Shown here: one piece after another, positions 26,853 through 27,713 of the stretch | Position numbering within the stretch: the first letter of the stretch is position 1 | Layout: each line of letters opens with the position of its first letter | Notes under the pieces: generated by a model | What the model was told of the DNA's origin: nothing | Seen by the model: the letters and a program-made list of their open reading frames with translations, nothing else | Databases searched by the model: none | Translations under genes and position numbers: made by a program | Source: a plasmid | Sequence record: OW849040.1 | Length of the DNA: 56,641 bases | Direction: 5' to 3' (one strand)

Positions 26853-27713
26853 TTACCAATGCTTAATCAGTGAGGCACCTATCTCAGCGATCTGTCTATT
26901 TCGTTCATCCATAGTTGCCTGACTCCCCGTCGTGTAGATAACTACGATACGGGAGGGCTTACCATCTGGCCCCAGTGCTGCAATGATACCGCTAGACCCA
27001 CGCTCACCGGCTCCAGATTTATCAGCAATAAACCAGCCAGCCGGAAGGGCCGAGCGCAGAAGTGGTCCTGCAACTTTATCCGCCTCCATCCAGTCTATTA
27101 ATTGTTGCCGGGAAGCTAGAGTAAGTAGTTCGCCAGTTAATAGTTTGCGCAACGTTGTTGCCATTGCTGCAGGCATCGTGGTGTCACGCTCGTCGTTTGG
27201 TATGGCTTCATTCAGCTCCGGTTCCCAACGATCAAGGCGAGTTACATGATCCCCCATGTTGTGCAAAAAAGCGGTTAGCTCCTTCGGTCCTCCGATCGTT
27301 GTCAGAAGTAAGTTGGCAGCAGTGTTATCACTCATGGTTATGGCAGCACTGCATAATTCTCTTACTGTCATGCCATCCGTAAGATGCTTTTCTGTGACTG
27401 GTGAGTACTCAACCAAGTCATTCTGAGAATAGTGTATGCGGCGACCGAGTTGCTCTTGCCCGGCGTCAACACGGGATAATACCGCACCACATAGCAGAAC
27501 TTTAAAAGTGCTCATCATTGGAAAACGTTCTTCGGGGCGAAAACTCTCAAGGATCTTACCGCTGTTGAGATCCAGTTCGATGTAACCCACTCGTGCACCC
27601 AACTGATCTTCAGCATCTTTTACTTTCACCAGCGTTTCTGGGTGAGCAAAAACAGGAAGGCAAAATGCCGCAAAAAAGGGAATAAGGGCGACACGAAAAT
27701 GTTGAATACTCAT
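26853..27713 (-). CDS. blaTEM: Class A beta-lactamase TEM with R244S (TEM-30 / IRT-2-like, inhibitor-resistant). Otherwise identical to TEM-1 as remembered
   Basis: Codon 244 reads AGC instead of CGC (the GGTCTC BsaI site of bla is changed to GGTCTA). Protein segment GERGSSGII instead of GERGSRGII. Confidence 0.8.

Follow-up and report, generated by a model that had tools for sequence, protein, structure and literature searches.

Does the blaTEM gene carried by this plasmid encode the ordinary TEM-1 enzyme or an allele that resists clavulanate, and how did it come to lie beside a quinolone-resistance gene? TEM-1 is well inhibited by clavulanate, so that the answer bears directly on the phenotype expected from the genotype. 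We analysed the 56,641 nucleotides of sequence record OW849040.1 (hereafter the window), which probably correspond to the whole 56.6-kb plasmid since they begin at an IncN repA gene and stop just before it. The initial annotation of this DNA had proposed that the gene differs from blaTEM-1 by an R244S substitution. Our analysis leads us to conclude, with a probability of roughly 0.93, that it is blaTEM-30 (IRT-2), i.e. a TEM-1b gene in which one C-to-A change has replaced Arg244 by Ser, in a potentially mobile Tn2/IncN context. The features on which the analysis relies are collected in Table 1.

Table 1. Coordinates of the features discussed in the text (window numbering).
Feature	Position	Strand	Remarks
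repA, IncN replication initiator gene	1..720	+	RepE-type match
Tandem array, IncN iteron-type	768-1826		37-bp unit, 28.5 copies, directly after repA
Class 1 integron remnant	3157-6193		intI1, dfrA14, IS6100
intI1	3157-4170	-	integron integrase, 799.5 bits
dfrA14 cassette, class 1 integron	4326..4799	+	exact match to annotated dfrA14 of pKm38_N; DfrA family match
VirB-type genes	about 11857-22715		IncN transfer backbone
IS26 copy 1	23624..24443	+	intact, inverted relative to copy 2
qnrS1	24896..25552	+	NCBIfam QnrS, 516.8 bits (cut-off 460)
Serine recombinase gene accompanying qnrS1	25871..26485	-	resolvase-type matches; counterpart annotated 'recombinase family protein' in other records
IS26 copy 2, end fragment	26607..26705	-	99 bp, cut off by Tn2
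Target-site duplication, left copy	26701..26705	.	GGGAT, 5 bp
Tn2-type (Tn3-family) transposon	26706..31655	.	complete, 4,950 bp; perfect 38-bp inverted repeats, full tnpA
IRR of Tn2	26706-26743	.	38 bp
blaTEM-30 CDS	26853..27713	-	861 nt, ATG start, 286-aa precursor
Codon of Ambler residue 244	26991..26993	-	AGC (Ser), not CGC (Arg); changed base at window 26993 = Sutcliffe nt 929
P3-type bla promoter	27755..27783	-	-35 TTCAAA, -10 GACAAT; Sutcliffe 162 = G, 32 = C
tnpR of Tn2	27896-28453	-
tnpA of Tn2	28617-31622	+	matches full Tn3-family transposase model
IRL of Tn2	31618-31655	.	38 bp
Target-site duplication, right copy	31656..31660	.	GGGAT, 5 bp
IS26 copy 2, larger fragment	31656..32381	-	transposase minus last 13 residues
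Tn5403-like Tn3-family element	32498-36165		965-aa transposase and resolvase; directly after split IS26
MobF relaxase gene	36925..40161	-	IncN transfer backbone
Coupling protein gene	starts at 40161
2,450-bp segment	48435-50884		IS110-family transposase gene and DUF2268 putative Zn-protease gene

The bla product matches the NCBIfam blaTEM model NF000531.2 over residues 1-286 of 286 (665 bits, cut-off 625) and carries the class A catalytic motifs at the expected Ambler positions (S70-x-x-K73, S130-D-N, E166 and K234-S-G). No further class A beta-lactamase-like ORF was found on the window. When looked up by exact sequence in a collection of 15 billion proteins, the window protein was named 'inhibitor-resistant broad-spectrum class A beta-lactamase TEM-30', and the same protein recoded to Arg at Ambler position 244 was named 'TEM-1'. 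The precursor is the TEM-30 reference protein WP_021561477.1 over 286/286 residues. The mature protein is identical to the chain deposited as 'TEM 30' (PDB 1LHY, 263/263 residues), and residue 244 is its sole difference from the TEM-1 chain 1ERM. At the nucleotide level, the coding sequence is the same at 861/861 positions in 15 PLSDB records annotated blaTEM-30, AJ437107 among them, and the TEM-1 records of PLSDB are one base off. Protein look-up, structural chains and plasmid records thus agree that R244S is the sole change from TEM-1, as had been claimed.

Ambler residues 242-246 (precursor residues 239-243) read GSSGI, and re-reading of codon 244 at 26991-26993 gave the serine codon predicted in the initial annotation. 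The change had also been said to destroy the GGTCTC site of bla. Indeed, no GGTCTC was found inside the bla gene of the window, and TEM-1 copies have at position 26993 a plus-strand G (coding-strand C) that would restore it. In some TEM alleles, R244S occurs together with further substitutions such as Q39K or R164S. Here, the remaining positions known to change the phenotype are as in TEM-1 (Q39, with C at Sutcliffe 317, M69, E104, S130, R164, M182, G238, E240, R275 and N276), which identifies the enzyme as TEM-30 itself and not as a complex mutant. Alleles with R244S plus further changes were ruled out, the protein being TEM-30 throughout. The initial annotation had further warned that such a gene is easily mis-called as TEM-1. 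This risk is small, since current annotation tools name TEM-30 correctly, as seen in AMRFinderPlus rows.

The gene lies in a transposon in which all Tn3-family features are present (38-bp inverted repeats, tnpA, tnpR, bla and a 5-bp duplication). Its TEM-1b framework and its length of 4,950 bp, which is that of Tn2, make it a probable Tn2. A second Tn3-type backbone shares 97.3% identity with it. The silent sites of its bla gene (T226, T436 and T604) are those of the blaTEM-1b framework, as defined in PMC6476967. The flanks of bla resemble those found in pBR322/pUC vectors; a cloning-vector origin was rejected, as the window contains a full Tn2 with tnpA, tnpR, inverted repeats and duplication instead. 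Judging from its intact sequence, the transposon is potentially mobile. The TEM-1 Tn2 of pYPE10-78k (NZ_CP041444.1) has the same 4,950 bp, the same T226/T436/T604 framework and the same P3 promoter, and differs from the window in having Arg (CGC) at residue 244: the two elements are identical at 4949/4950 positions, position 26993 being the sole difference. Among the Tn2 copies of L003, L004 and L008, all with TEM-1, no position other than this codon-244 base departs from the window, over the shared parts in the case of the plasmids L003 and L008.

As one base in 4,950 differs, the A at Sutcliffe 929 could have been introduced during sequencing, polishing or assembly, or belong to a minority variant, on a plasmid that truly carries TEM-1. 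A single assembled sequence is compatible with a base-calling error at 26993; TEM-1 Tn2 is ubiquitous, and if the genome held another bla copy, its reads could in principle have been mixed in. Nevertheless, we consider this explanation very improbable. The change alters codon 244 at its first base, producing a well-known, clinically selected allele. Of the 2,583 single-base changes that bla can undergo, we estimate that no more than a few tens lead to a named inhibitor-resistant substitution, so that a random error would seldom yield such an allele. With one base involved, chance is not at issue; the sole difference from TEM-1 copies of the transposon falls on a known resistance codon. Moreover, the identical allele is present not only in the 15 PLSDB plasmids but also in 993 blocks of the assembly collection. 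Finally, a sister plasmid harbours another inhibitor-resistant allele (see below), evidence that selection in this lineage is real. The gene is accordingly referred to as blaTEM-30 in what follows.

In the window, an inverted pair of IS26 copies brackets qnrS1 and the serine recombinase gene. The initial annotation had placed qnrS1 on the same plasmid as bla; the gene lies 1.3 kb from blaTEM-30 and is identical (657/657 nt) to the annotated qnrS1 of NZ_CP068847.1, which bears out this claim. Tn2 transposed into the second IS26 of this IS26-qnrS1-IS26 unit. When segments 26607-26705 and 31661-32381 are rejoined, one copy of the duplication being removed, they reconstitute an 820-bp IS26 with 0 mismatches to copy 1. 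The 40 bp that span the IS26/Tn2 junction of the window read GCGCATTTCGCCCAGGGGATGGGGTCTGACGCTCAGTGGA.

We searched for this junction with a 52-bp query (26 bp per side) using only seeds that lie across the junction; a positive control of the same design recovered its own record. A 131-bp junction query was replaced, as separate pieces of IS26 and Tn2 were joined in its matches. The exact IS26/Tn2 junction was not found in the 72,556 plasmids of PLSDB, in 5,426 complete E. coli genomes, in GTDB genomes (one for each of 185,579 species) or in the JGI metagenomes. Among the matches listed for the relatives compared (H1, H15, H3, H109 and H112), none has the Tn2/qnrS1 arrangement of the window: Tn2 is on the opposite side of qnrS1 in the first three, and in H109 and H112 Tn2 or Tn3 abuts a truncated recombinase gene, at other junctions. 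The New York KPC-3 IncN plasmid NZ_CP127521.1 (L009) shares the backbone/IS26/qnrS1 junction at 100% identity over 4,179 bp (window 22000-26178). Its Tn3-type element abuts a truncated recombinase gene, forming a junction unlike that of the window. Three different junctions between Tn2/Tn3 and the qnrS1 module were observed among IncN relatives.

Two histories can account for the present location of the allele: R244S was already on Tn2 when the transposon inserted (import), or it arose afterwards in place. TEM-30 is found in many settings. It is IS26-bounded on an IncI-gamma/K1 plasmid, lies beside ISApl1 on an IncF plasmid, is part of a Tn1331-like element on a Klebsiella IncF plasmid, and also occurs in ICE-like, chromosomal and IncFII contexts. 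Three copies (L013, L015 and L018) are carried by the 97.3%-identical Tn3-type backbone, and a chromosomal copy (L016) has another silent-site framework and a Pa/Pb promoter. No qnrS1 was found near the exact TEM-30 protein in the ten contexts examined. These unrelated settings indicate that TEM-30 has originated more than once.

Point mutation in place, after a TEM-1 Tn2 had entered IS26, is nearly as plausible as import since TEM-1 copies of Tn2 at a distance of a single base are extremely abundant, and the Tn2 of the window is otherwise identical to them. It also fits the repeated emergence of TEM-30, as seen in L016, in AJ437107 with its P4 promoter, in L013, L015 and L018, and in the IS26, ISApl1 and Tn1331-type contexts. 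However, the version of the IS26/Tn2 junction that carries TEM-1 was absent from PLSDB, the complete E. coli genomes, GTDB and the JGI metagenomes. In addition, a contig of IncFII context (L019) contains a TEM-30 Tn2 identical to that of the window (4950/4950), located at another site and flanked by its own duplication, AAAAC; a donor copy therefore exists in nature. For this reason we slightly favour import, with R244S already present on Tn2 at the time of insertion.

OW967786.1, the nearest informative relative, is an IncN plasmid of 53 kb with blaTEM-40, qnrS1 and dfrA14; it comes from K. pneumoniae isolate 151 (Terrassa, Spain). Backbone stretches of 13.5 kb and 3.4 kb are 100% identical between this plasmid and the window, and the two also share the IS26-qnrS1-recombinase-IS26 unit and the dfrA14 integron. 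In contrast to the window, OW967786.1 has an uninterrupted second IS26, in which GGGAT occurs once at the point where Tn2 has entered that of the window. The Tn2 of OW967786.1 (24622-29571) occupies a backbone site, in the opposite orientation to that of the window and with the duplication TATTC; this site is empty in the window (23285-23312). The two transposons are identical at 4948/4950 positions, and both differing bases correspond to inhibitor-resistance codons, Sutcliffe 929 in the window (R244S) and Sutcliffe 409 in OW967786.1 (M69I, annotated TEM-40).

The sister IncN plasmids thus carry near-identical Tn2 copies at different sites, one with R244S and the other with M69I. On this basis we tentatively suggest that the IncN-dfrA14-qnrS1 lineage could be a recurrent platform, on which selection by amoxicillin-clavulanate repeatedly fixes an inhibitor-resistant TEM beside a quinolone-resistance gene on a conjugative vehicle; we consider this reading less likely than not. 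A hospital survey in Spain lists isolates with TEM-30, qnrS1, dfrA14 and an IncN replicon (PMC12388269), and the same lineage is possibly behind these Spanish E. coli isolates.

The assignment of the plasmid to an IncN type, made in the initial annotation, agrees with an IncN repA and backbone, a VirB-type system, a MobF relaxase and a coupling protein. The repA gene is identical (720/720) to that of plasmids typed IncN by MOB-suite. As the iteron array that follows is devoid of stop codons, it gives rise to spurious ORFs, six in all, which overlap one another on both strands and measure 320-495 aa. The set of transfer genes (VirB-type, EexN, MobF and coupling protein) is near-identical to that of plasmids typed as conjugative, MOBF and MPF_T, and from these genes the IncN plasmid appears to be self-transmissible. 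The window further contains EcoRII restriction-modification genes, eexN, stbABC, ard genes and mucAB. The dfrA14 integron brings trimethoprim resistance onto the blaTEM-30 plasmid.

Neither the Tn5403-like element nor the 2.45-kb IS110/DUF2268 segment of the window is present in OW967786.1. The Tn5403-like element is present in the KPC-3 IncN plasmid CP128767.1. The 48435-50884 segment is missing from both of the closest IncN relatives and is found at 99.8-99.9% identity in other Klebsiella/E. coli plasmids.

How would the loss of Arg244 protect the enzyme? Arg244 normally holds the carboxylate at C3 in penicillins and in clavulanate-type inhibitors, and the water that it positions opens the second ring of the inhibitor, leading to a stable, inactivating trans-enamine adduct. 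An enzyme devoid of Arg244 would bind clavulanate more weakly and turn it over, and would thereby survive. Amoxicillin-clavulanate would be expected to lose activity against a TEM-30 producer, at the price of weaker hydrolysis of penicillins and cephalosporins by the enzyme. The dual role of Arg244, as C3 carboxylate anchor and in water positioning, has been described, with R244S, R244H and R244C raising Ki values 10-20-fold (PMC13577047). The R244C/H/G/L TEM variants (group 2br) fall into the same mechanism class, the anchor and water role of Arg244 being lost (PMC8399295, PMC13577047), with residues other than the Ser of the window at position 244.

The initial annotation had expected resistance to clavulanate-type inhibitors as a whole. 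This expectation holds for clavulanate and not for sulbactam or tazobactam combinations in isogenic tests (PMC8399295). In these tests, all R244 mutants showed raised amoxicillin-clavulanate resistance, R244S being about four-fold above TEM-1, and R244S also increased resistance to ampicillin-avibactam (PMC8399295). R244 mutants were more susceptible to cephalosporins, aztreonam, ampicillin-sulbactam and piperacillin-tazobactam; for the sulbactam and tazobactam combinations, this was attributed to a lower activity on the partner penicillins (PMC8399295). The term 'inhibitor-resistant', which is also the NCBI class of the TEM-30 allele, would therefore apply chiefly to clavulanate, plus avibactam in the isogenic study.

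The level of expression also has to be considered. IncN plasmids are low-copy, and blaTEM-30 would here be transcribed from the weak P3 promoter, whose -10 box occupies window positions 27755-27760 (Sutcliffe 162-167); the resulting rise in MIC may be modest. P3 has been described as a weak promoter, and the C32T change as creating Pa/Pb (PMC6476967). The chromosomal TEM-30 copy L016 has T32 (Pa/Pb). AJ437107 shares 1,091 bp with the window in an otherwise dissimilar genetic context, and the only difference, located upstream of the gene, is T162 in AJ437107 (TACAAT, the strong P4 promoter) versus G162 in the window (GACAAT, P3). As their promoters differ (P3, P4 or Pa/Pb), expression and hence MIC may differ among TEM-30 carriers; promoter strength is known to shift markedly the MICs of inhibitor combinations (PMC6476967).

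It could thus be argued that TEM-30 is genuine but clinically near-silent on this plasmid, conferring only borderline resistance to amoxicillin-clavulanate. P3 in the window as opposed to P4 in AJ437107, together with the effect of promoter strength on MICs (PMC6476967), points in this direction, as does the isogenic R244S effect, which is four-fold and accompanied by a lowered activity on penicillins (PMC8399295). Against this, every R244 mutant gained amoxicillin-clavulanate resistance in isogenic tests (PMC8399295), the allele is listed as inhibitor-resistant by NCBI, and TEM-40 in the sister plasmid suggests a phenotype of sufficient strength for selection to act on it. We therefore regard a near-silent allele as unlikely. 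The isogenic results and the weak P3 are rather compatible with a phenotype that is clavulanate-specific and possibly modest.

TEM-30 has been known since the 1990s. It was reported together with KPC-2 in Klebsiella from New York (Bradford 2004), and TEM-30, qnrS1 and IncN have been found combined in an E. cloacae isolate from China (PMC6697253). TEM-30, the way in which it acts and its association with qnrS1 and IncN have thus been documented before, and the sister plasmid with TEM-40 is itself in the public record; what the collections searched do not contain is the precise IS26::Tn2 arrangement. As allele, structure and mechanism have been known for decades, no new biology is involved, and the value of the observation is mainly epidemiological, for surveillance and for the prediction of phenotype from genotype. 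TEM-30 makes amoxicillin-clavulanate unreliable, and coarse gene screens may show an ordinary TEM-1 producer. In the present case, blaTEM-30 is physically linked to qnrS1 and dfrA14, on an intact transposon and an apparently conjugative plasmid of the broad-host-range IncN type. Owing to this linkage, exposure to any one of the drugs concerned (fluoroquinolones, trimethoprim or amoxicillin-clavulanate) could select for the three traits together.
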